Shown here one piece after another: positions 604 through 15,433 of a stretch of DNA of 64,000 bases. Source of the stretch: a virus. Taxonomy: Duplodnaviria; Caudoviricetes. The position numbers were made by a program, and so were the translations under genes. How positions within the stretch are numbered: position 1 is the stretch's first letter; each line of letters starts with the position of its first letter. The notes beneath the pieces are model-generated. The model made no database searches. It worked only from the letters and a program-made list of their open reading frames with translations, and was not told the DNA's origin. The stretch lies in the IMG/VR virus record IMGVR_UViG_3300035675_000001. The stretch is one strand, 5' to 3'.

Positions 604-605
604 AA

Positions 606-680
606 TGGTGCGCGTGGAGAGGATCGCACTCCCAACCTCCGCCGTGTCGAGGCGTTGCTCTGCTGCTGAGCTACACGCGC
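606..680 (-). tRNA. tRNA-Val(GAC)
   Basis: Acceptor GCGCGTG/CACGCGC, A-CCA; anticodon loop TC-GAC-AC (C33); T-loop TGCGATC. Confidence 0.9.
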
Positions 681-681
681 A

Positions 682-831
682 TTAAGATTGTCGCTGCTTG
701 GCGATGATTTCGACCGAGTGAGCGATCCGATTGACCGCATCCGCAATTTTACGGATGGAGTCGTCCGTAGCCGCCCCGACGCCGAACATGACCACCAGAC
801 CCAGGAAGAAGCCTAATGTAAACTTTTTCAT
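682..831 (-). CDS. Small membrane/secreted protein (49 aa)
   Basis: Read by hand: MKKFTLGFFLGLVVMFGVGAATDDSIRKIADAVNRIAHSVEIIAKQRQS; below the ORF-track cutoff. Confidence 0.55.
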   Translation of the reverse strand: MKKFTLGFFLGLVVMFGVGAATDDSIRKIADAVNRIAHSVEIIAKQRQS

Positions 832-848
832 CCAGGATAGTTAATGCG

Positions 849-1220
849 ATGAAAGTCGCTGGTCAAGAGATCGAAGTTCAAACCGACCGCTATCATGGCG
901 GCTGGCTGAGCGTCGCCTACATGCCTGATGGCAAGAGAGTTGCCTCGGCCCCCTGGGACACCAGGGAAGCTGCCGAGAACGACGTGTATCAGCAGGTCTT
1001 GATGCGCCTGGCACCCGCGCCGACTTTCGACCCGACCAGAAGCTACGAATCGGCCATCATTCAAAGCCGAGCCGATGGTCTCCTGGAGCACTGCGGGCAC
1101 TGCCCCAACGACATCCGCAAGCGTCGGCTGGCCCGGCTGCGTAAGACCCCGCCGCCCAAAGCTTCGTTTTACCCTGGCAGCGGTGGATCAGCCGGGGTTG
1201 GAGGGACCACAAGTGCCTGA
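849..1220 (+). CDS. Hypothetical protein
   Basis: 123-aa ORF preceded by ATAGTTA; stop overlaps the next GTG start. Confidence 0.55.
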   Translation: MKVAGQEIEVQTDRYHGGWLSVAYMPDGKRVASAPWDTREAAENDVYQQVLMRLAPAPTFDPTRSYESAIIQSRADGLLEHCGHCPNDIRKRRLARLRKTPPPKASFYPGSGGSAGVGGTTSA

Positions 1221-2136
1221 GTTCGGCCTCAAATACGACTACCGGCCCTACGTCTGCATGACTTGCGGGCAGGAGAAGATGATCGGCACCAACCACACCG
1301 ACATCTGCTTTGACCACTGCCCAGGGTGCTCCTGGCGCGGCGGTATGCACCCGACCGGCGAAGTTTACCATCCCAGCCACACCCGCGCTTTTCAGTTCGC
1401 AGGACAGGAACCGGAGGACAAAATGATCGACCGTGATTTACTGGGCGAAGCCGATGAGCTTCTGCCGCGCCCGCCCTCGATGAAGGTGCGCGATCTCCAG
1501 GACAAAGCTACCCAGTCGCGGGCAAAACTTGCCCAGCTCCGCGCCCAAATGGGCAACCGGCCCGATGTGCTGGCCAAGATCGACGACCTCGACAAGAAGA
1601 TGAACCAGCGCGACAGCCTGTTGCGCCAGCTCAAATACAGCCTGGAGTTCCGCGAGGCCGCAGCCCGGCACAATGTTCCTCTCGATCAGGTCCGCGCCTT
1701 GATCCCGCACCCCAGCACACCTTTCGGCCAAACGCCACGATCCGTGGTCGGCCTGGTCACCAACGACGGTCGCCGGGTCATGTTCACCCGGCCCATTGAC
1801 GTTCACCGGCCAGATGTCGTTGAGCACTGGGAAGACCTGGATGAAGGCTGGCGCAAATGGGCGGCTGGAGCGGCAATGGGAGCTGCGCTCCTGGGCGCTG
1901 GCATCCACAGCCAGCACCACGCCAAAGCTCCGCAGCAGGCCAGCTACGTCGATCCCGACGCCGAGCGCGAAGCCAAAGCCGAGCAGCGGTTGCGGAACAA
2001 AGCGGACCAGCTCAAGAGCGCCGGAAAAACCAGCGGCACTTTCAAGCAGGGCAAGCTCCAGCCTGACACATTCCAGCCGGGCACACTGGGCGGCTCGAAC
2101 ACCGCCGAGCGCCGTGTCAGCCACACGGACTTCTGA
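1213..2136 (+). CDS. Hypothetical protein with N-terminal CxxC zinc-binding motifs and a hydrophobic segment
   Basis: GTG start inside ORF 1075-2136; CMTC...CPGC; EDLDEGWRKWAAGAAMGAALLG. Confidence 0.6.
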   Translation: MPEFGLKYDYRPYVCMTCGQEKMIGTNHTDICFDHCPGCSWRGGMHPTGEVYHPSHTRAFQFAGQEPEDKMIDRDLLGEADELLPRPPSMKVRDLQDKATQSRAKLAQLRAQMGNRPDVLAKIDDLDKKMNQRDSLLRQLKYSLEFREAAARHNVPLDQVRALIPHPSTPFGQTPRSVVGLVTNDGRRVMFTRPIDVHRPDVVEHWEDLDEGWRKWAAGAAMGAALLGAGIHSQHHAKAPQQASYVDPDAEREAKAEQRLRNKADQLKSAGKTSGTFKQGKLQPDTFQPGTLGGSNTAERRVSHTDF

Positions 2137-2208
2137 TGGAGCCGAAGGCCGGTGCTGCCCCGGCCTGGTCAAGTTTACAAAACTCGTCCCCTCGCTGGAG
2201 GCTTCGGC
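2137..2208 (-). tRNA. tRNA-Thr(TGT)
   Basis: Acceptor GCCGAAG/CTTCGGC, T-CCA; anticodon CGAGT-TTTGTAA-ACTTG; T-loop GGCAGCA; C8. Confidence 0.85.
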
Positions 2209-2250
2209 GTCAATACCTTAGTGCATAGGACGTGTTCCCCGTGGAACAAA

Positions 2251-2326
2251 TGGTGGGCTGGGCGGGCCACGATCCCGCAACCTGACGGTTAAGAGCCGCC
2301 TGCTCTGCCGATTGAGCTACCAACCC
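2251..2326 (-). tRNA. tRNA-Lys(CTT)
   Basis: Cloverleaf with CCA; loop CT-CTT-AA; T-loop ATCGTGG. Confidence 0.9.
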
Positions 2327-2332
2327 GTAAAA

Positions 2333-2407
2333 TGGTCGCTGCGCCCGGACTCGCACCGGGAACCGTCACCTTATGAGGGTGCCGCGCTACTATTGCGCCA
2401 CGCAGCG
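2333..2407 (-). tRNA. tRNA-Met or Ile2 (CAT)
   Basis: C1-G72 paired, so not initiator; loop CT-CAT-AA; T-loop TGCGAGT. Confidence 0.85.
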
Positions 2408-2411
2408 TTCG

Positions 2412-2466
2412 CCTGGCCTTGGTTCGCACCGTGTCTTCGGCACCACCATGACAAGACAGGGCCAGG
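2412..2466 (-). ncRNA. Candidate small structured RNA between tRNAs
   Basis: CCTGGCC/GGCCAGG closing stem, TGTCTT/AAGACA inner stem, GGT-GCGA-ACC GNRA hairpin. Confidence 0.4.
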
Positions 2467-2473
2467 TTTGAAG

Positions 2474-2549
2474 TGGAGCCAACCCAGGGACTTGCACCCT
2501 GCATCACCCGCTTACCAAGCGGGGTCACCGCTGTCTGTGAGTGGTTGGC
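2474..2549 (-). tRNA. tRNA-Thr(GGT)
   Basis: Acceptor GCCAACC/GGTTGGC, T-CCA; loop TT-GGT-AA; T-loop TGCAAGT; A8. Confidence 0.9.
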
Positions 2550-2552
2550 AAA

Positions 2553-2628
2553 TGGAGCGAACGACCGGCAATGATCCGGCAACCTGATGCTTGGAAGGCA
2601 CCTGCTCTGCCTATTGAGCTACGTTCGC
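2553..2628 (-). tRNA. tRNA-Gly(TCC)
   Basis: T73-CCA; loop CT-TCC-AA; T-loop ATCATTG. Confidence 0.9.
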
Positions 2629-2951
2629 GTTGGAAAACCTTGTTCGGCGCGGCGGACCTTTTTGGCGGCTTCACGAGCCTCCCGGCCCGCTTCCCATTCT
2701 TCCGGGGAAGGCACTGGATCAAGAATCTCGTCGCCGGGATGAAGCATCCCGTGGGACCAGCCGCCCTGGCCATCATCGTAGCCGACCGAGTGGTGGATAC
2801 CCCTGCCGATCTCGCGGAGATCGTAATAGCCGTTCCAGTGAGCCTTGACGACCCCCTGCGGCGTGCGGACGCGGATGACTTTTCCGCCGCCTGGGTAATC
2901 TTCCTCACCCTCCAGGAGCGTCTTTACGATGAATTGTGCCACGCTAATCAT
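2619..2951 (-). CDS. Hypothetical protein with N-terminal LLE-acidic motif
   Basis: Start re-assigned to MISVAQFIVKTLLEGEED because the longer ORF overlaps tRNAs; GTAGTTA 8 nt upstream. Confidence 0.65.
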   Translation of the reverse strand: MISVAQFIVKTLLEGEEDYPGGGKVIRVRTPQGVVKAHWNGYYDLREIGRGIHHSVGYDDGQGGWSHGMLHPGDEILDPVPSPEEWEAGREAREAAKKVRRAEQGFPTRT

Positions 2952-2985
2952 GTCGGCATAACTACGCGGGGACTTGAGGACAGAA

Positions 2986-3060
2986 TGGAGGCCAGCCGGG
3001 GAATCGCACCCCGCGCCACGGTTTTGCAGACCGGTCAGTTCGCTTGCTCTGTCGCTGGCC
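2986..3060 (-). tRNA. tRNA-Cys(GCA)
   Basis: T73-CCA; loop CT-GCA-AA; T-loop TGCGATT; G8. Confidence 0.9.
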
Positions 3061-3061
3061 C

Positions 3062-3137
3062 TGGAGCCTCCGGCTGGAATTGCACCAGCCACGTCCTGTT
3101 TACGAAACAGGCGCACCGCTGTCTGTGCTTCGGAGGC
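3062..3137 (-). tRNA. tRNA-Thr(CGT)
   Basis: Loop TT-CGT-AA; T-loop TGCAATT; A8. Confidence 0.9.
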
Positions 3138-3140
3138 AAA

Positions 3141-3215
3141 TGGTGGGAACGGCTGGTGCTGCCCCAGCGACCTTGAGTTTGTAGGACTCCTGCTCTACTG
3201 CTGAGCTACGCTCCC
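3141..3215 (-). tRNA. tRNA-Val(TAC)
   Basis: Loop CC-TAC-AA (C33); T-loop GGCAGCA. Confidence 0.9.
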
Positions 3216-3235
3216 GAAATCGGTTCTAAAAAGGC

Positions 3236-3964
3236 ATGAGTGAATTGTTTCGAGCACGGGTCGAGAAGTTTTTCCTGGAGTATGTCCTCCACGACAGCCC
3301 GCACAGCCGCAATCCGTTTGTCACGACGCACTGCCAACGCTACGTCCACTCCATGCTGTTCGCCGAGGCCGAGCTGAAAGAGGCCAAGGTGATCCTGGAA
3401 GTGGGCGCACCGGGCGCTTTCACCGAGGGCCTGCGGTCCATGCTGCCGGACCTGGTGATCGAAAACTCAAGCGCCGATCTCCGCACCGTCTTTACGGACA
3501 AGCGAGACTACTACGACTTCATCCTGAACATGGAGGTCATCGAGCACATGAAAGACCTGGACGTGCCGGAGGACTGGTTCCATCGGGATGCCTACGTCGG
3601 CGACGGCTTGAAAAATTTTGTAAACACTTGCTACCAGTGCTTGAAACCTGGCGGAAAGATGTTCTTGACGACCCCCAATCTCAGTTCCATCGGAACTCTT
3701 TGGAGGGTAATGAACTGTGGAAACCCATTTTCCTACGAGCTGCACATCCGCGAACTTTCAGTCAGTGATCTCTGGAAGGCGCTCACCGATGCCGGATTCA
3801 AGATCGACCGCTATACAACCATGCGTTGTTACGAGCAAAACCAGGTTCCACCGGACAAAGAGGCCCGAATCATGGGCTTCTTGCGCGAGATGAATCTGCC
3901 CACGGACAACCGCGATGAAGTCCAGTTCGTCTTGGCGTCCAAGCCTGTAGTTAAACCGCAATGA
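3236..3964 (+). CDS. Class I SAM-dependent methyltransferase
   Basis: ILEVGAPG motif I, MEVIEHM, LKPGGKMFLTTPN. Confidence 0.85.
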   Translation: MSELFRARVEKFFLEYVLHDSPHSRNPFVTTHCQRYVHSMLFAEAELKEAKVILEVGAPGAFTEGLRSMLPDLVIENSSADLRTVFTDKRDYYDFILNMEVIEHMKDLDVPEDWFHRDAYVGDGLKNFVNTCYQCLKPGGKMFLTTPNLSSIGTLWRVMNCGNPFSYELHIRELSVSDLWKALTDAGFKIDRYTTMRCYEQNQVPPDKEARIMGFLREMNLPTDNRDEVQFVLASKPVVKPQ

Positions 3965-4101
3965 CGACCTGGCTACTCATAGCGGTAGTTGCCGGACTGG
4001 CTTTCGCTGCCGGATGGTGGTGGAGGGGTCGCCGGAAACGCAGACAAATTCGGGTCGAGTTCGACATCGGCCCAGTAACATTGAAACAAAACTATGGTTA
4101 A
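3961..4101 (+). CDS. Small membrane protein (46 aa)
   Basis: MTTWLLIAVVAGLAFAAGWWWRGRRKRR...; ATGA overlap with upstream stop; GTAGTTA upstream. Confidence 0.5.
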   Translation: MTTWLLIAVVAGLAFAAGWWWRGRRKRRQIRVEFDIGPVTLKQNYG

Positions 4102-4630
4102 GATCACAACCGAACAACAAGTCCGTTTGCACGCGGCCTTCCTGACGGCAGCGGGTTCTCCCGCTCCGATTGAGGGAACGCCGGAATGGAGTGCCGCTCC
4201 TGCGGGAGTGGTCAACCTCATCGTGGACCCTGATGGCCGCGCAGCCCTTTGCCAGAGCGTAGCTGCTGGCACCGCCCAGGTGTCCGTCTCGGCTGACGCC
4301 GACCTTGGCACCGGGGTCCGAACAATCACCGGCACCATCGGGATCGAAGTCAGCGAAGCCTCTGCCGAAGCAGTGGAGATCACCGCCGATACGCCTGAGT
4401 TCAAGACCGTGACGCTTACCGTCACCGTTGAAATGCTCCCGGACGGCACGGCCAAGGTCACCGGCCACGGCAACCCCGACACGCTGTATCACGTCGAAGC
4501 CGCCGATGATGTCGCTGGCCCGTATGCTGAGATCGGGACCACCCTGTCGGATTCGACCGGCGTCGCTATCTTCATCGACCCGGATGCCGCTTCGCACACC
4601 ACTCGGTTTTATCGTCTTCGTTGGCCCTAA
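4094..4630 (+). CDS. Ig-like protein with Verrucomicrobia-type C-terminal domain
   Basis: Beta-rich N-terminal half; ends YHVEAADDVAGPY...FIDPDAASHTTRFYRLRWP. Confidence 0.65.
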   Translation: MVKITTEQQVRLHAAFLTAAGSPAPIEGTPEWSAAPAGVVNLIVDPDGRAALCQSVAAGTAQVSVSADADLGTGVRTITGTIGIEVSEASAEAVEITADTPEFKTVTLTVTVEMLPDGTAKVTGHGNPDTLYHVEAADDVAGPYAEIGTTLSDSTGVAIFIDPDAASHTTRFYRLRWP

Positions 4631-4701
4631 AGGCTGACGTTGTTGGTGGTCAGTCCAGTCGTTGACGGCCCGGAGCTGTTCTCCGGGCCGTTTCTTTGCA
4701 A

Positions 4702-4833
4702 TGGTGGGGACGATAATCCTTCAAGTTCGGCCCTATTCAGGCAAGGATTTTCGGAGGTTTATTTGAGACGGGATTTGAACCCGCGACCTCCCGCTTTTCA
4801 GGCGGGCGCTCTACCAGGCTGAGCTACGTCCCC
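4702..4833 (-). tRNA. tRNA-Phe(GAA) with a 55-nt insert between the T arm and the acceptor 3' strand
   Basis: 5' GGGGACG pairs with distal CGTCCCC-A-CCA; normal D arm; CCCGC-CTGAAAA-GCGGG; T-loop TTCAAAT; insert at 4713-4767. Confidence 0.8.
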
Positions 4834-4853
4834 ATAAATCTGTTCTACGCAAT

Positions 4854-5585
4854 ATGCTGACAATCGGAATCTTGAACTGCAAACGGCAGAATAACGTCGT
4901 GGCCCTGGTCAACCGTTATTCGGCCATGCCCATCGTCTCTCGCGTCACCGTGTGGAGCAGTCCGCCCGGCGACTTCCGCGTGAGCGACAACCCCAAACTC
5001 CTGACCGCGACCTGCGCCCCGGACTGGGGCATGTATGCCCGGTTCCAGTCGGTCCTCAACGCGCCCACGGAGTGGGTCATGACGGTCGATGACGACCTGT
5101 TCATCCCGGAGGAGTCGATCAAGGTCATGCTCGACGCCCGGATGAAGGACAAGGACAAGAGGATCAGCGGCATGTTCGGCAGACGGCCTTCCCAAACCCA
5201 GGGCTTTGCCGTGTTCAAAGACCTGGTGGACGAGGACTGCGAAATCGTCGTGGCCCGCGTCATGGTGTTTCACGTCAGCCTGATCGCCCGCTTCTTCGAT
5301 GTCGTGCGCGACCCGCGCTGGGAGGAGCTTTACGCCAAAGGCCGGGCCAATGGCTGGACAAAGACCACCAACATCGAGGACATCATCATGAGCTACACCG
5401 CGATGCGCGACACCGGCAGGCTCAACCAGATTCACAAGGTGCCCCACCAGGAGTTCGACGCGCCGGAGCCGATCTGGAAGATGCCGAACTTCTTCCCGTA
5501 TCGCCAAGCGGGCCTGACGTTCACCCAGCAGTTTTTCAACAACTGGTCCCACAGCGATCAGCCGACCGGCTGGACCGGCTGTTAA
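4854..5585 (+). CDS. GT-A fold glycosyltransferase (GT64/EXTL-like)
   Basis: VMTVDDDLFI DxD motif; NIEDIIMS resembles the EXTL NCEDI motif. Confidence 0.65.
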   Translation: MLTIGILNCKRQNNVVALVNRYSAMPIVSRVTVWSSPPGDFRVSDNPKLLTATCAPDWGMYARFQSVLNAPTEWVMTVDDDLFIPEESIKVMLDARMKDKDKRISGMFGRRPSQTQGFAVFKDLVDEDCEIVVARVMVFHVSLIARFFDVVRDPRWEELYAKGRANGWTKTTNIEDIIMSYTAMRDTGRLNQIHKVPHQEFDAPEPIWKMPNFFPYRQAGLTFTQQFFNNWSHSDQPTGWTGC

Positions 5586-5586
5586 A

Positions 5587-5661
5587 TGGTGCTCGCGGTT
5601 GGAATCCCACCAACGGCCTCAGCCTTCGCAGGGCTGCGCTCTATAACTGAGCTACGCGAGC
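5587..5661 (-). tRNA. tRNA-Arg(GCG)
   Basis: Loop CT-GCG-AA; T-loop TGGGATT. Confidence 0.9.
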
Positions 5662-5665
5662 AAAA

Positions 5666-5741
5666 TGGTGCCCCAAACTGGAATCTCACCAGTGGCCTTC
5701 GCCTTCGGAGGGCGACGCTCTATAGACTGAGCTACTGGGGC
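5666..5741 (-). tRNA. tRNA-Arg(CCG)
   Basis: Loop CT-CCG-AA; T-loop TGAGATT. Confidence 0.9.
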
Positions 5742-5742
5742 A

Positions 5743-5821
5743 TGGCGTTCCTGGCGGGACTCGCACCCGCTAGAGATTCGGCTTGAAAGGCCGACCGCTG
5801 GACGACTTTGCGCTCAGGAAC
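5743..5821 (-). tRNA. tRNA-Glu(TTC)
   Basis: Loop CT-TTC-AA; G73; T-loop TGCGAGT; A8. Confidence 0.88.
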
Positions 5822-5826
5822 AAAAA

Positions 5827-5903
5827 TGGTATCCCCGGTGGGATTCGCACCCACGATCTTCTGGTTGAGAACCAGGCGTGTTGGGCTGCTACACTACGGG
5901 GAC
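5827..5903 (-). tRNA. tRNA-Glu(CTC)
   Basis: Loop TT-CTC-AA; T-loop TGCGAAT. Confidence 0.9.
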
Positions 5904-5907
5904 AATC

Positions 5908-5977
5908 CACGGACAAGGAGAGCGACGTGGGAGGTTTCTCATTAGTGGTAAGATAACCCACATCAATTCGGCCCGTG
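5908..5977 (-). ncRNA. Minimal Y RNA-like RNA (Ro60-binding stem)
   Basis: CACGGGCCGA...GTGGGTTATCT...CCCAC...CCTTGTCCGTG; bulged-C helix and GUUAUCU as in Y RNAs. Confidence 0.7.
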
Positions 5978-5981
5978 AAAG

Positions 5982-6056
5982 TGGTCCCTGGGATCGGTAA
6001 CGCACCGATGTCTCCGGTTTTTCAGACCGGCGCTAATCTATCTCAGCTACCCAGGG
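5982..6056 (-). tRNA. tRNA-Phe(GAA), uninterrupted copy
   Basis: Loop CT-GAA-AA; T-loop TGCGTTA. Confidence 0.9.
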
Positions 6057-6057
6057 T

Positions 6058-6243
6058 TCAAGGCTCCAGCGTTTCCGCGAGCAGGAGGGCTGCTGCGAGA
6101 CGACGCGCCTCCCTGCGCGTCAGATGATGATAGACGGTCTCGCCTGCGGATGAGGACAAACTGACCTTGATGAAATTGGATCGTCGGGTCTTGGAAACCT
6201 CCACCCGATACTGCTTCGCTTTGCTGACAAGACGGTAGCTCAC
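6058..6243 (-). CDS. Hypothetical protein
   Basis: 61-aa ORF; ATGA overlap with upstream gene. Confidence 0.5.
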   Translation of the reverse strand: MSYRLVSKAKQYRVEVSKTRRSNFIKVSLSSSAGETVYHHLTRREARRLAAALLLAETLEP

Positions 6244-6647: not shown

Positions 6648-6673
6648 GCCGGTCTAAATACGCAGGCTGAAAT

Positions 6674-6750
6674 TGGTAGCCGCAGTTGGAGTTGCACCAA
6701 CGACCTGACGCTTATCAAGCGCCTGCTCTGACTAGCTGAGCTACGCGGCC
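6674..6750 (-). tRNA. tRNA-Ile(GAT)
   Basis: Loop TT-GAT-AA; T-loop TGCAACT. Confidence 0.9.
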
Positions 6751-6753
6751 ACA

Positions 6754-6841
6754 TGGCGGCTGGTGCAGGATTTCCACCTGCGCGGGTTTTACCCCGTCCA
6801 CGGTTTTCGAGACCGGAACCTTGGTGCTCGGTCAACCAGCC
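6754..6841 (-). tRNA. tRNA-Ser(CGA)
   Basis: Long variable arm, G73; loop CT-CGA-AA; T-loop TGGAAAT. Confidence 0.9.
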
Positions 6842-6851
6842 GGAAAGATTT

Positions 6852-6975
6852 GACGGACAAGGGGAACCAAGGAGTTTTTGCTACCTCCGAGGTCACGGCA
6901 CATGGAGCCGTGAGTGAGAGTCGAACTCACATCGCTTCATTTACAGTGAAGATAATCCTCAGTAATCGGCCCGTC
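6852..6975 (-). ncRNA. YrlA-type Y RNA enclosing a circularly permuted tRNA-Tyr(GTA)-like domain
   Basis: GACGGGCCGA/TTGTCCGTC Ro stem; ACTGAGGA/TCCTTGGT; CTTCA-CTGTAAA-TGAAG; GTGAG-TTCGACT-CTCAC; TCACGGC-TCCATGT-GCCGTGA. Confidence 0.8.
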
Positions 6976-6979
6976 AAAA

Positions 6980-7067
6980 TGGCGGATGGTGCAGGATTTC
7001 CACCTGCGCTGGTGTTACCCAGTCCTCCGGCTTCCAACCGGGAACCTTGGTGCTCGGTCAACCATCC
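6980..7067 (-). tRNA. tRNA-Ser(GGA)
   Basis: Long variable arm, G73; loop TT-GGA-AG; T-loop TGGAAAT. Confidence 0.9.
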
Positions 7068-7084
7068 AAAAAGTTTACAAAAAG

Positions 7085-7173
7085 TGGCGGAGGGCACAGG
7101 AGTCCAACCTGTTCAGGTTTCACCCTGGCGTCGGTTTTCAAGACCGCCCCGTTCGACGTTCCGGCAGCCCTCC
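7085..7173 (-). tRNA. tRNA-Ser(TGA)
   Basis: Long variable arm, G73; loop CT-TGA-AA; T-loop TTGGACT. Confidence 0.9.
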
Positions 7174-7194
7174 GCAAGAAGGTAGTTAGCGCAG

Positions 7195-7641: not shown

Positions 7642-7642
7642 A

Positions 7643-7718
7643 TGGTGCTCGCGGCAGGAATCTCACCTGCGACCAGCCGCTTAGGAAACGACCGCTCTGA
7701 TAACTGAGCTACGCGAGC
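7643..7718 (-). tRNA. tRNA-Arg(CCT)
   Basis: Loop TT-CCT-AA; T-loop TGAGATT. Confidence 0.9.
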
Positions 7719-7719
7719 G

Positions 7720-7796
7720 TGGCACCCCTGCCAGGATTCCCACCTGGATCAGACCGCTTAGAAGACGGTCGCTCTAATACATTGAGCTACAGGGGC
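7720..7796 (-). tRNA. tRNA-Arg(TCT)
   Basis: Loop CT-TCT-AA; T-loop TGGGAAT. Confidence 0.9.
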
Positions 7797-7808
7797 TTAC
7801 AACTAAAA

Positions 7809-7884
7809 TGGCTGCCAAGACTGGGGACGATCCAGTAACCGCCCGGTTAACAGCCGGGTGCTCTACCAGTTGAGCTACTTGGCA
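7809..7884 (-). tRNA. tRNA-Asn(GTT)
   Basis: T1-A72, G73; loop CT-GTT-AA; T-loop ATCGTCC. Confidence 0.9.
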
Positions 7885-7890
7885 ATGAAA

Positions 7891-8106: not shown

Positions 8107-8122
8107 CGCTCTTAACTACAAA

Positions 8123-8199
8123 TGGTCAGCGCGGAGGGCTTCGATCCCTCGGCCTCCTGGCCCCGAACCAGGCGCTCTGCCAAGCTGAGCTACGCGCTG
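8123..8199 (-). tRNA. tRNA-Pro(CGG)
   Basis: C1-G72, A73, G37; T-loop ATCGAAG. Confidence 0.9.
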
Positions 8200-8206
8200 A
8201 TGAAAA

Positions 8207-8282
8207 TGGTCGGGCTGGCCGGGTATGATCCGGCGACCTTCTGGCCCCCAGCCAGACGCGCTGCCAACTGCGCTACAGCCCG
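8207..8282 (-). tRNA. tRNA-Pro(GGG)
   Basis: C1-G72; loop CT-GGG-GG; T-loop ATCATAC. Confidence 0.9.
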
Positions 8283-8286
8283 AAAA

Positions 8287-8361
8287 TGGTCAGGGCGGGG
8301 AGTTTCGCAATCCCGGCCTCCTGGTCCCAAGCCAGGCGCTCTGCTTCTGAGCTACGCCCTG
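8287..8361 (-). tRNA. tRNA-Pro(TGG)
   Basis: C1-G72; loop CT-TGG-GA; T-loop TGCGAAA with a T53.C61 mismatch. Confidence 0.85.
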
Positions 8362-8387
8362 ATCGCCGTGTAGTTACGGTGAAAGTT

Positions 8388-10454: not shown

Positions 10455-10458
10455 TTTT

Positions 10459-12417
10459 ATGAGCCTACTCGACATCAATCAGACTCAGGTCGCAGCAGTC
10501 ATGGCCCCGGTTATCAATAACCAGGGGACACAGGCGACGGAGCAGACGCTCATCACCGTCATGAACAGTCAGGGCACGCAGGCAACTGCTGCCCTCCAGG
10601 CCAACAGCAACGCTCTCCTGACCACCATCATGAACAACCAGGGGACGCTCGCCGATTACGACGACGCGACTCTCCAGGCGGTCATGAACAACCAGGGGAC
10701 GTTGGCCACGAGCAGCAAACAGGACGCTCAAACTGCCATCCTGGGTGCGATGCTGAACAACCAGGGAACACTGACTCCTGTAACTGGTGGAGCCACAGAA
10801 ATCACTTTGGTCCGACTTGCTAATGACCAAGGCACGTTGGCCACGAGTGCGAATCAAGCCGCGAGCAATGCCTTGTTAACGGTCGTAATGAATGACCAGG
10901 GCACATTGGCGACCAGCTCCTATCAGGCGGTCCAGCTCGAACTCCTGGGCTTGATTCTGAACAGCCAGGGAACTCAAAACACGTCCAGCCTGGCGACCAG
11001 CGCCAACCAGGCGCAGGCCAACAGCTCCCTCACAGTCATTCAGAACAACCAAGGAACGCAGGCCACGGCATCGAACCAAAGCACTGAAATCAGCCTGCTC
11101 AGCCTGATCCTGAACGCCCAGGGGACTCAAGGCGAAGGGCTGAACGCACTCTCACAACAGCAAGCGGACACGGTAACGACTTACGGACCAACCGGAACTC
11201 TAGCCTCAGCGCGAGTGGCCACGCTGATGACGACTGATCCGAACTCGGTAAGCGTTGACGCATTTGGTCGGCTGCGCGTCAGCAACGCGGACTACCGGTT
11301 TGACGGCCAGCTTGTTTACCAGGTCAACGCTGACCTATGGGACTCCGCCTGGAACAGCACTGGCACGGTGACCTATGACCGCAAGAACCGAATGGCTCAG
11401 CTCACTTGCGCGGCTAACGGCACCAGCGTCATGCAGAGCCACTATCACGTCCCCTACACGCCCGGACGCGGCCAGCTCGCTTTCGTCACGTTTGCCGGAA
11501 CGGCTGCGCCAGCCGAAAACACCTACCACCGGGTAGGCTACTTCGACGAGACAAACGGTATTTTCCTGGAGCGCACCAGCGCGGGAGCAAGCTTGACACT
11601 CAAAAGCTCAACCGATGCGGGGTCCGAGACAGTTTTACAGGCAAACTGGAACATCGACAAGATGGACGGCACCGGCCCCAGCGGGTTAACGCTCGACCTG
11701 ACCAAATCTCAAATCCTGTTTATCCAGCTCCAGGCGCTCTACATCGGTCGTGTAATCGTCGGCTTCGACATCGACGGCGTTGCCTGGCCGGTCCATCAGT
11801 TCACGCACGCCAACAAGTTCGTCAAGCCCTACATTGGCAACGCGAGCTTGCCGGTGCGCTACGAAGTGGGTTCAACGGGCGTCAATACCGCCCAGCTTAA
11901 TCCCGTCTGCGCCTCCGTCATCAGCGAAGGCGGCGGGCCGCTGATCGACATTCCGGCCCGCACATTCACCGCAGGCAACGGTGCAACACCCATCAGCGTA
12001 AACGCCCGGAGACCCGTGCTTTCAATCAGGCCCAAAGCGCAGTTTAACCAAAACCAGAACGAAGGCATTGTTCTGCCGTCTGACCTGTCGATCCGAAATT
12101 CGACTGCGGACATCTACGTTGAAGTCATCCGCAACGCCGTGCTCACGGGAGCATCCTGGACAAGCGTGGATGCGGTCAACAGCGTTTGTGAATATGATGT
12201 CGCGGCAACTGCCGTCAGCGGAGGCCAAACGGTTTTCTCAGGCTACAGCAACGTCTCGTCAGGGCTATCAACAAGCATCAAGGACAACCTGCTCAGCCGC
12301 CTGACCATCGTCTATTCAGAACTTCTTCAAACAGCGGACACGCTCACCATCGTCTGCACATCTCTCGGCGGTGCTGCTTCAACTGTCGCCGCGCTTAACT
12401 GGAAAGAAATTCGTTGA
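10459..12417 (+). CDS. Repeat-rich fibre-like protein, paralog of the upstream gene in its N-terminal half
   Basis: NNQGT(Q/L)AT repeats, then VSVDAFGRLRVS and a beta-rich C-terminal domain of a kind seen in phage virion proteins. Confidence 0.7.
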   Translation: MSLLDINQTQVAAVMAPVINNQGTQATEQTLITVMNSQGTQATAALQANSNALLTTIMNNQGTLADYDDATLQAVMNNQGTLATSSKQDAQTAILGAMLNNQGTLTPVTGGATEITLVRLANDQGTLATSANQAASNALLTVVMNDQGTLATSSYQAVQLELLGLILNSQGTQNTSSLATSANQAQANSSLTVIQNNQGTQATASNQSTEISLLSLILNAQGTQGEGLNALSQQQADTVTTYGPTGTLASARVATLMTTDPNSVSVDAFGRLRVSNADYRFDGQLVYQVNADLWDSAWNSTGTVTYDRKNRMAQLTCAANGTSVMQSHYHVPYTPGRGQLAFVTFAGTAAPAENTYHRVGYFDETNGIFLERTSAGASLTLKSSTDAGSETVLQANWNIDKMDGTGPSGLTLDLTKSQILFIQLQALYIGRVIVGFDIDGVAWPVHQFTHANKFVKPYIGNASLPVRYEVGSTGVNTAQLNPVCASVISEGGGPLIDIPARTFTAGNGATPISVNARRPVLSIRPKAQFNQNQNEGIVLPSDLSIRNSTADIYVEVIRNAVLTGASWTSVDAVNSVCEYDVAATAVSGGQTVFSGYSNVSSGLSTSIKDNLLSRLTIVYSELLQTADTLTIVCTSLGGAASTVAALNWKEIR

Positions 12418-12502
12418 CGTAAGCCAGTCACGCCGGTCGCTGGCATAACCAACGACCGGCATGGCAGGGGCGTGTTGCTGCTCTGCTTCATCAGCAGGAC
12501 AA

Positions 12503-12579
12503 TGGCGGGCACGACCGGACTCGCACCGGCTGACTTCGCCGTGACAGGGCGCTGATTCGACTCCTTCATCTCCGTGCCC
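12503..12579 (-). tRNA. tRNA-Asp(GTC)
   Basis: G73; loop CT-GTC-AC; T-loop TGCGAGT; G8. Confidence 0.9.
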
Positions 12580-12585
12580 GTAAAA

Positions 12586-12673
12586 TGGTGGGAGGCGCTG
12601 GTTACGCTCCAGCCGCCACTACCCGTGATGTTGAAGGCACCGGTTTTACAGACCGGCCACGGGACCGCCTCCC
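12586..12673 (-). tRNA. tRNA-Tyr(GTA)-like RNA lacking a D arm
   Basis: Acceptor GGGAGGC/GCCTCCC, A-CCA; CCGGT-CTGTAAA-ACCGG; only 10 nt between acceptor and anticodon stems; T-loop AGCGTAA. Confidence 0.75.
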
Positions 12674-12675
12674 AT

Positions 12676-12764
12676 TTACCCAGGTCCAAACCACTGTGGC
12701 TCTGACCCCGTTACTTCCGCTGTGGCGCGTAGGGGCCTTCCTCCACTCTTTCTGGACTGGGCAA
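12676..12764 (-). ncRNA. Candidate rod-like structured RNA
   Basis: TTGCCCAG/CTGGGTAA, TCCAGA/TTTGGA, GTGG/CCAC, GGCCCC/GGGGTC nested stems. Confidence 0.5.
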
Positions 12765-12775
12765 GTAGCTAAAGC

Positions 12776-13297
12776 ATGAAATTGATACCGGTTCTCATGG
12801 CGTGTTTGGTTCTTTCAGGCTGTATGATCGTCAACGTGAAAGAACGGGGCTTTCCGCCCGAACACCAAATTGTAAACTTTGATCGGGTGACCAGCGACCT
12901 CTACCGGGGCGCTCAACCGACCATCGCCAGCCTCGATTACCTCAAGTCGTTGGGGATCAAAAGCGTCGTCTGCCTGCGAGAACCTTCTGACATTCTGCCG
13001 GGCGAACCAATATCGGTCTCGGCGCTCGGCCTGCGCTTCGAGAACCTGCCGATGGACGGCGTGACGGCTCCCAGCGAAGCGGACATAGACAAGATGCTGG
13101 ACGTGATCGACGCGCTGCCCAAGCCGGTCTTCATCCACTGCCAGTTCGGCTGCGACCGCACCGGGACCGTGATCGCCTGCTGGCGCATCAAGCATGGCTG
13201 GGACAACGACGCAGCCTACCGGGAAGCCAAGCAATACGGCATCTCGCCGCTGCTCCCGGCGCTTCATCATCTCATCAAGACCTACAAGAAAAAGTAA
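12776..13297 (+). CDS. Cys-based protein tyrosine/dual-specificity phosphatase, lipoprotein
   Basis: HCQFGCDRTG (CX5R), LYRGAQP; lipobox LVLSGC. Confidence 0.85.
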   Translation: MKLIPVLMACLVLSGCMIVNVKERGFPPEHQIVNFDRVTSDLYRGAQPTIASLDYLKSLGIKSVVCLREPSDILPGEPISVSALGLRFENLPMDGVTAPSEADIDKMLDVIDALPKPVFIHCQFGCDRTGTVIACWRIKHGWDNDAAYREAKQYGISPLLPALHHLIKTYKKK

Positions 13298-13385
13298 CGG
13301 GCAAGGGTTGGCGTCGGAGATGCCTGGTTGCCCAGGCGGTTTCCATACCAATGATAGAAGATAACCGACATCCATTCGGCCCGTT
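13296..13385 (-). ncRNA. Y RNA-like RNA (Ro60-binding stem)
   Basis: AACGGGCCGA...GTCGGTTATCT...CCGAC...CCTTGCCCGTT; inner hairpins TTCTAT/ATGGAA and GCCTGG-GCAA-CCAGGC. Confidence 0.75.
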
Positions 13386-13387
13386 GA

Positions 13388-13490
13388 ATCACCACCGGTA
13401 TTGCAACCCGCACCGCACATCAGCACTTCTTCGGCCTCGACGGCTGTGCTTTCGCTGGTCATGGGAGTCGAACCCATTGTTCACGGTGAT
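13388..13490 (-). ncRNA. tRNA-mimic RNA with a 5'-proximal canonical T arm (YrlA-like order)
   Basis: ATCACC/GGTGAT closing stem; ATGGG-TTCGACT-CCCAT; further hairpins; no anticodon arm or CCA end. Confidence 0.6.
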
Positions 13491-13498
13491 GAAAATTA

Positions 13499-13571
13499 TG
13501 GCACGGAGTGTGGGTGCTGCCCCCACCAGGACTGGTTTTGGAGACCGGTCTGCACGGCTGGTGCCCTCCGT
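13499..13571 (-). tRNA. tRNA-Trp(CCA), atypical compact fold
   Basis: G73-CCA; loop CT-CCA-AA; D arm GCAC-CAGCC-GTGC; extended anticodon stem; T-loop GGCAGCA. Confidence 0.8.
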
Positions 13572-13572
13572 A

Positions 13573-13666
13573 TTCAGCACCCCCTTTTACGCTGACGGTC
13601 AGAGTCGCGTTCACAGGCTCGCACGACCGGCCTGCTGCCGTCCCACGGATAAGCCAAGGTGCCGAA
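13573..13666 (-). ncRNA. Candidate pseudoknotted RNA
   Basis: TTCGGCACC/GGTGCTGAA; GACGG/CCGTC; CAGGC/GCCTG whose loop GGTCGTG can pair with downstream CGCGACT. Confidence 0.5.
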
Positions 13667-13668
13667 AT

Positions 13669-13744
13669 TGGTGGAAGCGCCGGGACTCGCACCCGGAACA
13701 TCGACGATGCCATCGTCGCGCTCTACTGATTGAGCTACGCCCCC
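13669..13744 (-). tRNA. tRNA-Ala(GGC)
   Basis: G3.T70, A32-T38; T-loop TGCGAGT. Confidence 0.9.
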
Positions 13745-13751
13745 GAAAGAG

Positions 13752-13843
13752 CCGGGCCGAGTTTGCTTCGAGGTTGCAACCCCGTTGCCTTATCGTGCGG
13801 GATGTGCGCCCGCCCTCCGTTCATGAGACGGAGTGCTCCCCGG
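13752..13843 (-). ncRNA. Permuted tRNA-like RNA with a CAT anticodon-like arm
   Basis: CCGGG/CCCGG closure; CTCCGT-CTCATGA-ACGGAG; GCGGG-CGCACAT-CCCGC; no CCA end. Confidence 0.5.
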
Positions 13844-13854
13844 ATACCGACGTT

Positions 13855-13928
13855 TGGTGGAATCGGAGGGAGTCCCACCCTCATCTCCCGCGTGCGAGGC
13901 GGGCGCTCTAGTGCTGAGCTACGACCCC
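13855..13928 (-). tRNA. tRNA-Ala(CGC)
   Basis: G3.T70; loop CT-CGC-AC; T-loop TGGGACT. Confidence 0.9.
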
Positions 13929-13933
13929 AAAAA

Positions 13934-14797
13934 ATGAAACCGCGCTGCGTCTCGATCTTTCCGACCAACCACTGCAACGCGCACTGCTACTACTGCGCCT
14001 ACCAGACCAGTTACGCCTTCGCGGATGCGACCACGATGTGCCGCAAGACGGACCAGCTCTCACGCGAGCTGCTGGCCAAGGCGCTGGACGAGGCGAAAAT
14101 CTGCAACAACATCGAAATCTCTGGCGGCGGCGAACCCCTTTGCCATCCCGACTTCGCCTGGTTTGCCAGGGAGGTCGTGGCCCGTGGGATCGGGGCCAAG
14201 CTCATTACCAACGGCGTGCTGCTCACCGGCGAGCTGCTGGAAGTCTCCGCCCAGCTCAGCTACGTGGAGTTCTCGATCAATTACTACGACCACCTGAGCT
14301 TCGAGGCCAACCGCAGTATGCCTCGTGGCTGGTTTGAAACCGTGACGGCCAACGTCAGAAATCTGATGAGCAGCCCGCACTCCTGCGTGATCGGGGCCAA
14401 GGTCGTGCTCACAGGCCGGAACTACCAGACGCTCCCGCAGATCAAGCAATACCTGGGGTCGCTGGGAATCCATCGCCTGGTCGTGACGCCCAGCTACAGC
14501 CGAGACGCGAGCGACGTGCCCCCGCCTGCGGTGTTTGGGATGGACCGGATCGCGCACGTCAAACCGAAGTGCGCTTACTGCCAGCGCCGAATCGACCATC
14601 CGGTCATCGGAGCTGACGGGAAATACTACGCCTGCTGCTACTTCACCTACATGCCGTCCATGCAGATCGGCGACCTGGCCACGCAGAGCTTGTCAAACGT
14701 GTTAGACAACGGACCCGTGTTCGACCAGGGCCTCTGCTGCCGGGTCGAGCAGGTGATCGCCGACTACCGGCGCGGGGTCGTCACTGCGTTTCCGTAA
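13934..14797 (+). CDS. Radical SAM protein with C-terminal Cys-rich (twitch/SPASM-like) region
   Basis: CNAHCYYC, SGGGEPL, TNG, YACCY; start moved out of tRNA-Ala. Confidence 0.85.
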   Translation: MKPRCVSIFPTNHCNAHCYYCAYQTSYAFADATTMCRKTDQLSRELLAKALDEAKICNNIEISGGGEPLCHPDFAWFAREVVARGIGAKLITNGVLLTGELLEVSAQLSYVEFSINYYDHLSFEANRSMPRGWFETVTANVRNLMSSPHSCVIGAKVVLTGRNYQTLPQIKQYLGSLGIHRLVVTPSYSRDASDVPPPAVFGMDRIAHVKPKCAYCQRRIDHPVIGADGKYYACCYFTYMPSMQIGDLATQSLSNVLDNGPVFDQGLCCRVEQVIADYRRGVVTAFP

Positions 14798-14799
14798 AA

Positions 14800-14928
14800 G
14801 GAGCCATGCGGCGGGATTTGAACCCGCGCTCTGGATACTCGTGTCACCTTTCTCCAGGATTTGGTGCGACGCGCCACTTGGCCTCCCCGAAGTGTGACAC
14901 CCCCAGGTCGGTTGCAGTCGCCACAGGC
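14800..14928 (-). ncRNA. tRNA/tmRNA-like RNA (129 nt) with canonical T arm
   Basis: GCCTGTG/CGCATGGC acceptor-like stem with one bulge; CGAC then CTGG..GTGTCAC/GTGACAC..CCAG; GCGGG-TTCAAAT-CCCGC; ends TCC. Confidence 0.6.
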
Positions 14929-14934
14929 ATAAAT

Positions 14935-15010
14935 TGGTGGAAGTGATGGGACTCGCACCCACAACCTCAAGCTTGCAAAGCTCGCGCTCTACTAATTGAG
15001 CTACACCCCC
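14935..15010 (-). tRNA. tRNA-Ala(TGC)
   Basis: G3.T70; loop TT-TGC-AA; T-loop TGCGAGT. Confidence 0.9.
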
Positions 15011-15012
15011 AA

Positions 15013-15135
15013 TCCGAAACCGCCTGCTGTTCGGCAAGCCTCACTCCCCACAGCCGTAGAGGGACCGGTTTCCCCGGCTGAGCGTAGCGGCATTCAGCCA
15101 GGCGGAAGTCTCTTTCAACCGCCCAGCTTATCGGA
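15013..15135 (-). ncRNA. Candidate multi-hairpin structured RNA
   Basis: TCCGA/TCGGA closure; GGGCGG/CCGCCT; GGCTGA/TCAGCC; CCGG-GGAAA-CCGG. Confidence 0.45.
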
Positions 15136-15141
15136 AAATAT

Positions 15142-15266
15142 ACGGAGGCCGGTATCCAGCCCGGACTCACGGCCTTGAACGGAACGCCTGTTGCGGTCAG
15201 CGAAATCGCCTCCTACCAGGTGTCCACCGCAGCCGGGAGCTTCGCATTGGGTTGCGAGCACTCCGC
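15142..15266 (-). ncRNA. Candidate tRNA-like structured RNA
   Basis: GCGGAG/CTCCGT closure; TCGCA-ACCCAA-TGCGA; TGCGGT/ACCGCA; CCGG-GCTGGATA-CCGG. Confidence 0.45.
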
Positions 15267-15272
15267 GTTAAA

Positions 15273-15346
15273 TGGAGCGGGTGAGCGGTAACGATCCGCC
15301 GTCTCAGCGTTGGCAACGCCGTATTCTGCCATTGAACCACACCCGC
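15273..15346 (-). tRNA. tRNA-Gly(GCC)
   Basis: T73; loop TT-GCC-AA; T-loop ATCGTTA. Confidence 0.9.
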
Positions 15347-15351
15347 AGAAA

Positions 15352-15429
15352 TGGGGTGGACGACCGGACTTGCACCGGCACCGGGCAGGTTCACAACCTG
15401 CGGCTACCACTATTTGAGCTACGTCCACC
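15352..15429 (-). tRNA. tRNA-His(GTG)
   Basis: G-1:C73 encoded; loop TT-GTG-AA; T-loop TGCAAGT. Confidence 0.9.
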
Positions 15430-15433
15430 ATGA

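Follow-up and report, generated by a model that had tools for sequence, protein, structure and literature searches.

A stretch of viral DNA of 64,000 nucleotides (IMG/VR virus record IMGVR_UViG_3300035675_000001; Duplodnaviria; Caudoviricetes), hereafter the window, carries an array of transfer RNA (tRNA) genes at positions 606–15,429 and appears to hold most elongator tRNAs of an uncultured jumbo phage from wetland and soil. Textbooks treat T54-psi55-C56 in the T-loop and G18-G19 in the D-loop as nearly invariant in tRNA. None of the window tRNAs has T54-T55-C56 (0/32), and when the upstream flank of the same genome was included the triplet was absent from all of at least 41 elongators (0/41), which together cover all 20 amino acids and a near-complete range of anticodons. 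The changes at positions 54–56 are matched at their tertiary partners in the D-loop and T-loop, which suggests that the elbow and the L-shape of these molecules would be kept. As a tentative explanation, we propose that the UUC-free elongator set reflects avoidance of a T-loop reader, i.e., a protein that recognizes U54-U55-C56, and that it would provide the phage with an insulated or back-up tRNA pool.

Recoding of the T-loop and covariation in the elbow

The tRNA content of the window was established with ARAGORN, with Rfam models at the gathering score and at a relaxed E-value, with an acceptor/CCA scan (perfect 7-bp acceptor pairing followed by N-CCA), and by hand reading. ARAGORN called 24 tRNAs, all on the minus strand and spanning 606–15428; Rfam added Cys, Thr-CGT, Val-TAC, Glu-TTC, Ser-CGA, Asp, and Tyr, the acceptor/CCA scan added Thr-TGT (2137–2208), and reading of the interval 13290–13670 added Trp (13499–13571). 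The total of 32 within 15 kb (606–15429), all on the minus strand and each with an encoded CCA, equals the number given in an earlier note on this DNA, and the absence of TTC from every one of them was recovered as well. Scores against RF00005 ranged from 36.7 to 65 bits for 25/32 tRNAs, over the 29-bit cut-off, while the other seven matched the tRNA-Sec model only or came from the acceptor/CCA scan and hand parsing, their T-arm hairpins being confirmed by the hairpin scan described below. The genes have the cloverleaf of bacterial elongator tRNAs (7-bp acceptor, anticodon arm, 5-bp T-stem with 7-nt loop, 3' CCA), with anticodon loops of 7 nt in the ARAGORN structures. G3:U70 was read directly in the three Ala tRNAs and G-1 together with C73 in tRNA-His, and the CCA ends were intact, as the earlier note had described for G3:U70, G-1, and CCA. 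With many specificities on one strand, phage genes alongside and more tRNAs upstream, the cluster has the make-up of a phage tRNA array. Judging from intact stems and identity elements and from the encoded CCA, the recoded tRNAs look translation-competent.

The tRNA sequences of the window were identical across three independent metagenome assemblies. In a ~93%-identical strain from soil metagenomes, the acceptor stem of tRNA-Glu(TTC) has T3:A70 replaced by C3:G70 and C5:G68 by G5:C68. Because of this identity and these compensatory stem changes, we consider the genes reliable and not a product of decay. The junctions between tRNA genes are rearranged in the same soil strain (contigs matching window 5743–5821).

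An independent search for hairpins with a 5-bp stem and a 7-nt loop over the whole window returned 12 T-arms of the class TGCRANN, 7 of TG[G/A]RANN, 6 of ATCRNNN, 1 of AGCGTAA, and 3 of GGCAGCA, to which hand parsing added TGCGAAA (Pro-TGG), TGCGTTA (Phe), and TTGGACT (Ser-TGA); these are the classes listed in the earlier note. Among the 32 tRNAs of the window, only the six of the ATC class keep the canonical GG D-loop. Each G55 tRNA has an A-N dinucleotide in place of G18-G19, which is AG in the TGC-type tRNAs. In the phage set including the flank, the seven A54-T55-C56 tRNAs keep the GG D-loop and most of them have T58 instead of A58. In the same set, the R56 tRNAs have Y19 in 10/10 cases (C:G six times, U:A twice, and U:G twice), cases that are not fully independent owing to paralogy (five Arg and three Ser), whereas the C56 tRNAs that could be assigned at position 19 have G19 in 31/31 and Y19 in 0/31. 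Across the 725 unique tRNAs of all collected loci, the 18:55 pair was A:G in 370, G:U in 265, and discordant in 70, and 54:58 was U:A or A:U in most.

Positions 18 and 19 were assigned by a rule blind to the T-loop, and a pair count from MAFFT alignments was dropped, as length variation of the D-loop misaligns both positions. The covariation at 18:55, 19:56, and 54:58 fits kept pairs, yet a control shifted to D-loop position 17 was paired equally often, this position being U-rich; because U-richness inflates the count of paired cases, we rely on the association of G19 with C56 and of Y19 with R56 and not on raw pair counts.

RNAs that retain the canonical T-loop

The flank was reached through a window protein that occurs letter-for-letter on a wetland contig in ENA, the overlap of which with the window has 1 mismatch in 13,964 bases. 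This contig extends 6.7 kb upstream of the window and two JGI contigs reach farther. Nine flank elongators (Arg-TCG, a second CAT tRNA, Lys-TTT, two Gln, and four Leu) have no TTC. An initiator-type tRNA-Met (C1xA72) located 6.7–15 kb upstream of position 1 (L120/L123) has the D-loop AGTTGGTA with canonical GG and the T-loop TTCAAAT, and a full transfer-messenger RNA (tmRNA; 112 bits; L120/L123) has the canonical T-arm GGGTTCAATTCCC. The statement of the earlier note that all ordinary tRNAs lack TTC thus stands for the elongators (at least 41/41) and fails for the initiator, i.e., it is a rule for elongators and not for every ordinary tRNA of the phage genome.

T-arm hairpins of the type TTCRANN number exactly four in the window against 0.2 expected from shuffles (lower coordinates 4768, 6914, 13461, and 14811). 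All four fall inside the non-standard RNAs to which the earlier note had confined TTCRA, namely those starting at 4702, 6852, 13388, and 14800. A Ro60 gene (567 aa, TROVE and vWA_Ro60 domains; L123 10169–11872) lies ~6.4–8.1 kb upstream of window position 1, so the Y-like RNAs of the window have a Ro60 partner close by, as YrlA-type Y RNAs do. The YrlA covariance model RF02553, with a gathering score of 69 bits, was not reached by matches in the flank (42.2 and 40.9 bits) or in the window (best 22 bits), and none of the four TTC-bearing window RNAs matched it. These RNAs, which had been described as tRNA mimics, look like YrlA-type Y RNAs from their T-arms and the neighbouring Ro60 gene; their proposed role as decoys or baits is speculation.

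Ro60, the YrlA-like matches, the tmRNA, the initiator tRNA, and the four Leu tRNAs cluster at L123 8150–11900 (also L120 1–6765). The Leu tRNAs of these arrays (L123 8150–8500; L072/L198; bacterial islands described below) are 73–85 nt long, and in place of the usual long variable arm they apparently combine a short variable region with an enlarged segment of the D-arm; ARAGORN mis-calls one of them as Pro.

Recoded arrays in related phages and other viruses

Related jumbo-phage contigs (238 kb, L200; 135 kb, L204) were reached via a 199-aa HNH protein encoded in the flank (L123 15992–16591), and they share the local gene order Ro60 ... DUF7873 - HNH .... L204 carries an orthologous tRNA array in the same order, with tRNAs 58–93% identical outside the loops. 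The triplet at 54–56 differs from that of the window in 15/21 elongator orthologue pairs (ATC, TCC, TCT, TCA, TTA, TTG, and GTC occur), and by hand count these pairs differ at ~0.48 per site at 54–56 vs. ~0.25 elsewhere in the molecule. TTC is retained by the initiator of each of the three phages, at 93% identity across them.

Two unrelated viral contigs have whole arrays without TTC (23/23 tRNAs, 50% G+C; 34/34 tRNAs, 62% G+C), a Ro60-like gene being present on the second of these. More than 100 further viral contigs combine an A18/G55 tRNA with a TTC majority, and contigs chosen for having a G55 tRNA have TTC in 319/516 tRNAs.

The 199-aa protein has a C-terminal HNH domain of the Cas9/IscB type (profile match to PDB 4h9d, E = 1e-10) and an uncharacterized N-terminal half of ~100 aa. 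It has 495 relatives, many of them auto-named McrA. Homologues occur in 18–21 of the Ro60 islands described below and in L031, L200, and L202, i.e., the protein travels with Ro60 and the recoded arrays; Ro60 and this Cas9/McrA-type HNH protein are the only two proteins common to the phage tRNA region and the islands. An AlphaFold model from a 15-sequence alignment had a predicted local distance difference test score of 38 and was unusable.

Ro60-linked islands in Verrucomicrobiota

The phage Ro60 is 51–55% identical to Ro60 proteins from metagenome-assembled genomes (MAGs) of Verrucomicrobiota, many of these on contigs of 0.1–5.9 Mb. In ~25 Verrucomicrobiota MAGs, islands around Ro60 genes were found with up to 22 CCA-ended tRNAs each, and their T-loops are recoded likewise (TGC, TGG/TGA, AGCGTTA, CGCGATA, and TGGAAAT); TTC is almost missing among several hundred island tRNAs. 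The recoding is therefore not specific to phages, the same recoded tRNAs being present in Verrucomicrobiota chromosomes. Directly upstream of the island Ro60 genes are TTC-bearing tRNA-like calls with nonsense anticodons, which we read as putative Y RNAs, and some islands encode an RtcB-like ligase.

A complete 5.9-Mb chromosome of the Verrucomicrobiae carries two Ro60-linked tRNA islands and, dispersed, 42 tRNAs of which 41 have TTC and one has TCC; the D-loops printed for these have GG. TruB and a protein of the m5U-methyltransferase family are encoded by the same genome. In the likely host clade, housekeeping tRNAs thus do not share the T-loop spectrum of the phage; a shared spectrum, which the earlier note had named as refuting its interpretation, was not seen for them, and because 41/42 of these core tRNAs have TTC, chance is excluded as the source of its absence from the phage elongators.

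Homology between phage and island tRNAs is plain in some cases, such as the unusual D-loop GAGATAGATTA of Phe and the D-stem of Gly-GCC. The window tRNA-Gly(GCC) and an island copy are 93% identical outside the loops and have G18/A54-T55-C56/T58 vs. A18/T54-G55-C56/A58. The corresponding loops are AATGGCA and ATCGTTA in the window and AACAGCA and TGCRAYT in five island relatives, and by parsimony the return to G18:U55 in the Gly-GCC lineage would have come jointly with the 54:58 flip. Since the L204 array and the island Gly-GCC use other triplets than the window, the loss of TTC is supported as a series of separate events reached by several routes, in line with the independent substitutions proposed in the earlier note.

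Possible causes of the recoding

Known enzymes that act on the T-loop are TruB (psi55), TrmA/TrmFO (m5U54), and TrmI (m1A58). In the folded elbow, bases 54–56 are buried and their identity would be read only by proteins that open the T-loop; candidate readers would be TruB, modification enzymes of the TrmA/TrmFO type, and T-loop endonucleases such as CdiA-CT(E479). The last is the one documented nuclease of this sort, cutting tRNA between T and psi of the T-loop (PMC9086364, PMC7912444). With the elbow re-coded such that U54-U55-C56 never occurs, with G55 accompanied by A18, R56 by Y19, and A54 by U58 or A58, the elongators may be invisible to such readers, and the pool could work while canonical tRNAs are damaged, marked, or sequestered. 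Non-elongator RNAs (the initiator tRNA, the tmRNA, and the tRNA-like domains of the putative Y RNAs) keep the canonical loop. Published work connects Ro60, YrlA, and RtcB with the damage and repair of tRNA (PMC4201824, PMC7790460), and the idea of an insulated or back-up pool fits because the arrays are linked with Ro60, Y RNAs, and in some islands an RtcB-like ligase. We infer avoidance as the selective cause, and likewise the kind of reader, from the recoding, its covariation and conservation, the fast turnover at 54–56, and the canonical tRNAs of the host clade. The reading is possible, and we hold it tentatively.

Several observations weigh against avoidance of a T-loop reader. No nuclease, toxin, or TruB-/TrmA-like enzyme was found among ~40 open reading frames of window and flank searched with Pfam, PHROGs, or NCBIfam, although a CdiA-CT(E479) homologue was not specifically sought, and the nuclease or toxin that the earlier note had proposed to look for elsewhere in the genome did not turn up in this set. 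The HNH protein that accompanies the arrays is, from its domain, more likely a DNA nuclease. The initiator and the tmRNA keep TTC and would thus be exposed to any general T-loop reader, and TTC is not absolutely excluded in L204, where it occurs in 4/30 tRNAs (the initiator, one Leu-like tRNA, Pro-TGG, and Asp). With ~13 tolerated triplets, the low frequency of TTC could partly reflect drift and ancestry. Verrucomicrobiota are the likely hosts on the strength of Ro60 similarity (51–55%) and habitat only, and no RNA runs carrying this DNA were found. From the earlier note, selection against a T-loop reader is retained for its fit to the recoding pattern, with no nuclease found and with drift explaining part of the pattern in the absence of an enemy; the variant in which the reader is the phage's own weapon is disfavoured, as its own initiator and tmRNA keep TTC.

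In a more elaborate and rather doubtful form of the avoidance idea, the elbow would be an arms-race surface: an enzyme deployed by wetland and soil bacteria or by their competitors, and reading U54-U55-C56, would disable elongators, jumbo phages and Ro60-linked islands would answer with complete tRNA sets that have shifting triplets at 54–56 compensated at 18, 19, and 58, and Y RNAs together with Ro60 would serve as decoys or damage sensors.

A relaxed constraint followed by drift could also account for the pattern, and we regard this as possible if somewhat unlikely. Elongators freed from TruB/TrmA-assisted maturation, or from the need for long-term stability, would let their contacts 18:55, 19:56, and 54:58 wander over structurally equivalent combinations; A18:G55, the commonest, perhaps folds well unmodified, and TTC would owe its rarity to ancestry and to the many alternatives, with no attack involved. 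The many tolerated triplets (TGC, TGG, TGA, ATC, AGC, GGC, TTG, TCC, TCA, TCT, TTA, GTC, and CGC) speak for this, as do the quick, compensated turnover at 54–56, the lack of an enemy enzyme in the open reading frame scans, and the more than 100 viral contigs in which single A18/G55 tRNAs lie amid normal TTC ones. L204 also has TTC at a low frequency, e.g., in tRNA-Pro(TGG), with TTCAAAA and GG there vs. TGCGAAA and AG in the window at 84% identity. However, most phage tRNAs elsewhere have TTC, and because they do so in 319/516 cases even in contigs selected for G55, a short working life alone is not enough to remove it. TTC is also far under an equal share of ~13 states (0/41, 0/23, 0/34, and almost none in the islands), lineages that regained G18:U55 flipped 54:58 too, and the initiator kept TTC at 93% identity across phages, so that a release from constraint would concern elongators only.

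Alternatively, the canonical elbow could be reserved for the Y RNAs, which would present it to a partner (TruB, a nuclease tether, or a sensor), and the abundant elongators would be recoded so as not to compete for or be captured by that partner. In the phage clade and in ~25 islands, a strict linkage joins the recoded arrays to Ro60 and to Y-RNA-like elements with TTC, the T-loop of Salmonella YrlA is a TruB substrate and is pseudouridylated (PMC4201824), and the four TTC T-arms of the window are all in non-tRNA RNAs. The large excess of canonical host tRNAs would compete anyway, though, no partner protein was identified, and one contig (G003, a fragment) has a whole recoded array and no Ro60 was found on it. 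We consider such partitioning improbable.

The avoidance of restriction sites in DNA, one of which is contained in TTCGAA-type T-loops, has very little probability. TTCGAA is indeed missing from the window (0 seen vs. ~17 expected) and all 64 6-bp palindromes together are depleted (134 vs. 962 expected), but GTTCRA is not (94 seen vs. 70 expected), and the palindrome-free loops TTCAAAT, TTCGAGT, and TTCGATT are likewise missing from the 41 elongators, on which grounds it was rejected as the main cause; moreover, the same recoding is found on bacterial chromosomes, and the D-loop compensation is sensible only at the RNA level. It is equally hard to credit that the genes are in decay or encode tRNA-like RNAs with no part in translation, in the manner of the staphylococcal cell-wall tRNA-Gly, of which a UGC T-loop without G18-G19 is a hallmark (PMC7826273, PMC13443448): Rfam scores are under those of core tRNAs, but all 20 amino acids and near-complete anticodons are present, acceptor stems, identity elements, and CCA are intact, stems and elbow pairs show compensatory changes, and gene order is kept across diverged phages.

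Genome context and coordinates

The window has a G+C content of 59.5% and encodes a family A DNA polymerase (PolA), an NAD-dependent ligase, a DnaB-type helicase, a baseplate J-like protein, and a PHROG virion protein. Metagenomes of several studies, from wetland, freshwater, soil, and subsurface habitats, contain DNA of the phage. No close relative among cultured phages was found: DNA matches were limited to 5' halves of tRNAs, and PolA had <30% amino-acid identity. Viral contigs gave no match to the ligase protein or to a 42-mer taken exactly from the window, an exact look-up of the open reading frame 1075–2136 was likewise empty, probably owing to a misassigned start codon, and RtcB was absent from the window and the phage flanks by tblastn. 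The coordinates of the tRNAs and TTC-bearing RNAs are given in Table 1.

Table 1. Positions, T-loops, and further characteristics of tRNAs and TTC-bearing RNAs in the 64-kb window
RNA	Position	Strand	T-loop or T-arm	Further characteristics
tRNA-Val(GAC)	606..680	-	TGCGATC	D-loop AGCAGCA (A18 G19)
tRNA-Thr(TGT)	2137..2208	-	GGCAGCA	Missed by both ARAGORN and Rfam
tRNA-Lys(CTT)	2251..2326	-	ATCGTGG (A54/T58)	D-loop with canonical GG
tRNA-Met(CAT), elongator	2333..2407	-	TGCGAGT	D-loop AATAGTA
tRNA-Thr(GGT)	2474..2549	-	TGCAAGT	
tRNA-Gly(TCC)	2553..2628	-	ATCATTG	GG D-loop
tRNA-Cys(GCA)	2986..3060	-	TGCGATT	Discriminator U73
tRNA-Thr(CGT)	3062..3137	-	TGCAATT	
tRNA-Val(TAC)	3141..3215	-	GGCAGCA	D-loop AGCAGTA
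TTC RNA 1, tRNA-Phe-like	4702..4834	-	TTCAAAT	GG D-loop; ~55 nt insert ahead of the 3' acceptor strand
tRNA-Arg(GCG), tRNA-Arg(CCG)	5587..5741	-	TGGGATT, TGAGATT	D-loops ...ATA (A18 U19)
tRNA-Glu(TTC), tRNA-Glu(CTC)	5743..5903	-	TGCGAGT, TGCGAAT	
tRNA-Phe(GAA)	5982..6056	-	TGCGTTA	D-loop GAGATAGATTA, common to island Phe tRNAs
tRNA-Ile(GAT)	6674..6750	-	TGCAACT	
tRNA-Ser(CGA)	6754..6841	-	TGGAAAT	D-loop GAGCACCAA (C19:G56)
TTC RNA 2, permuted Tyr-like or Y-RNA-like	6852..6980	-	T-arm GTGAG-TTCGACT-CTCAC	
tRNA-Ser(GGA), tRNA-Ser(TGA)	6980..7173	-	TGGAAAT, TTGGACT	
tRNA-Arg(CCT), tRNA-Arg(TCT), tRNA-Asn(GTT)	7643..7884	-	TGAGATT, TGGGAAT, ATCGTCC	
tRNA-Pro(CGG), tRNA-Pro(GGG), tRNA-Pro(TGG)	8123..8361	-	ATCGAAG, ATCATAC, TGCGAAA	
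tRNA-Asp(GTC), tRNA-Tyr(GTA)	12503..12673	-	TGCGAGT, AGCGTAA	
TTC RNA 3	13388..13490	-	T-arm ATGGG-TTCGACT-CCCAT	
tRNA-Trp(CCA), compact	13499..13571	-	GGCAGCA	
tRNA-Ala(GGC), tRNA-Ala(CGC)	13669..13928	-	TGCGAGT, TGGGACT	CGC D-loop AGCACTA (C19:G56); both G3:U70
TTC RNA 4	14800..14935	-	T-arm GCGGG-TTCAAAT-CCCGC	Weak match to a tmRNA 3' end
tRNA-Ala(TGC)	14935..15010	-	TGCGAGT	
tRNA-Gly(GCC), tRNA-His(GTG)	15273..15428	-	ATCGTTA, TGCAAGT	Gly D-loop AATGGCA; His G-1

In tRNA-Pro(TGG) (8287–8361), the normally invariant closing pair G53:C61 of the T-stem is replaced by a T53.C61 mismatch, which is kept in the L204 orthologue (18929). Protein genes between the tRNAs (window 1–16000) are mostly on the strand opposite to them.

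The scan of the ~40 open reading frames yielded radical-SAM proteins, a class I methyltransferase (3236–3964), a GT64 glycosyltransferase (4854–5585), a PAS protein, and a DSP-type phosphatase. The radical-SAM proteins number five, some with SPASM/twitch domains, and are encoded at window positions 1–603, 13934–14797, and 32292–32996 and at L123 3211–4200 and 6578–7552. The phosphatase, a Cys-based protein of the DSP/PTP type (12776–13297, plus strand; Pfam PTP-NADK, Tc-R-P, and PTP-SAK), lies between the Tyr tRNA and Y-like RNAs and is also found among the gene calls of relatives; it may act in the chemistry of RNA ends or nucleotides.

The depletion of palindromes in the window, for which expectations were obtained from a fourth-order Markov model over positions 1–64000 (sum of 134 seen vs. 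~962), includes 32 palindromes with an expectation of ≥5 that are wholly absent, e.g., GCCGGC, GAGCTC, CAGCTG, CGGCCG, TTCGAA, and GGATCC. Among 4-bp sites, GTAC was seen 0 times vs. 153 expected and CTAG 7 times vs. 73. This looks like a strong anti-restriction signature.

Comparison with known systems and implications

The closest published precedent is the non-proteogenic tRNA-Gly of staphylococci (NP1-3; Ia/Ib of S. epidermidis), which has a UGC/UGU T-loop and neither G18-G19 nor psi55, yet is stable and charged (PMC7826273, PMC13443448). The TGC, TGG, and TGA classes described here share the UGC/UGU-like T-loop without G18-G19. The staphylococcal molecules are three isoacceptors for one amino acid in one genus, are used in cell-wall synthesis, and are kept from translation by weak EF-Tu determinants in the T-stem and an extra 31-38 anticodon-stem pair (numbering of the source; PMC13443448), whereas the phage set, unlike this tRNA-Gly(UCC), comprises at least 41 tRNAs for 20 amino acids in about ten recoding versions. 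What the phage contributes is a complete elongator set with no canonical member, conserved canonical exceptions (initiator, tmRNA, and Y-like RNAs), and further compensated classes, namely A54:U58 with canonical G18-G19/U55-C56, GGCAGCA, and TTG, while the orthologous array of the related phage shows rapid switching between elbow classes. In a full-text literature search, neither G55/A18 nor a recoded T-loop was found described for tRNAs of phages or arrays.

Mutations in the loop are known to let phage tRNAs of the T5 type evade anticodon nucleases (van den Berg et al. 2023, PMC10264068). As in that case (see also Azam et al. 2024, PMC11555353), the phage tRNAs studied here depart from those of the host at a site that a tRNA-targeting enzyme would read, by several independent substitutions. 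In anticodon-nuclease escape the site is the anticodon loop and the nucleases are known (PrrC, PtuAB, and AriB of PARIS), whereas in the present set it is the elbow that has changed, with no known nuclease; the T-loop, the D-loop, and the elbow go unmentioned in van den Berg et al. (PMC10264068). That a T-loop reader can exist is shown by CdiA-CT(E479) of Burkholderia pseudomallei (PMC9086364), which is a contact-dependent inhibition toxin of a proteobacterium. The Ro60/YrlA modules (Chen et al. 2014, PMC4201824) and the rsr-yrlBA-rtcBA repair operon (PMC7790460) resemble the phage locus in having a Ro60 gene (TROVE and vWA) and adjacent tRNA-like RNAs with a canonical T-arm, and the RtcB-like ligase of some related islands extends the likeness to that operon. 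For the published modules, a complete recoded tRNA set as a companion has not been described, and the YrlA matches of this phage stay under the gathering score (42 and 41 vs. 69 bits). We know of no link between CdiA-CT(E479) and phage defence.

A practical consequence is that standard tRNA finders miss such genes, as ARAGORN called 24/32 here, and the recoded variants may be natural templates for tRNAs left untouched by the modification enzymes of a host. If, as these sequences indicate, a whole decoding set does without the textbook invariants, the ribosome, EF-Tu, and the aminoacyl-tRNA synthetases would not need these bases, which raises the question of what in cells does need T54-psi55-C56 and G18-G19. 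If the set has indeed escaped a T-loop reader, the elbow would join the anticodon loop as a second axis of tRNA-centred conflict between phages and bacteria, and the so far unexplained association of tRNA arrays with Ro60 and Y RNAs would gain a function.

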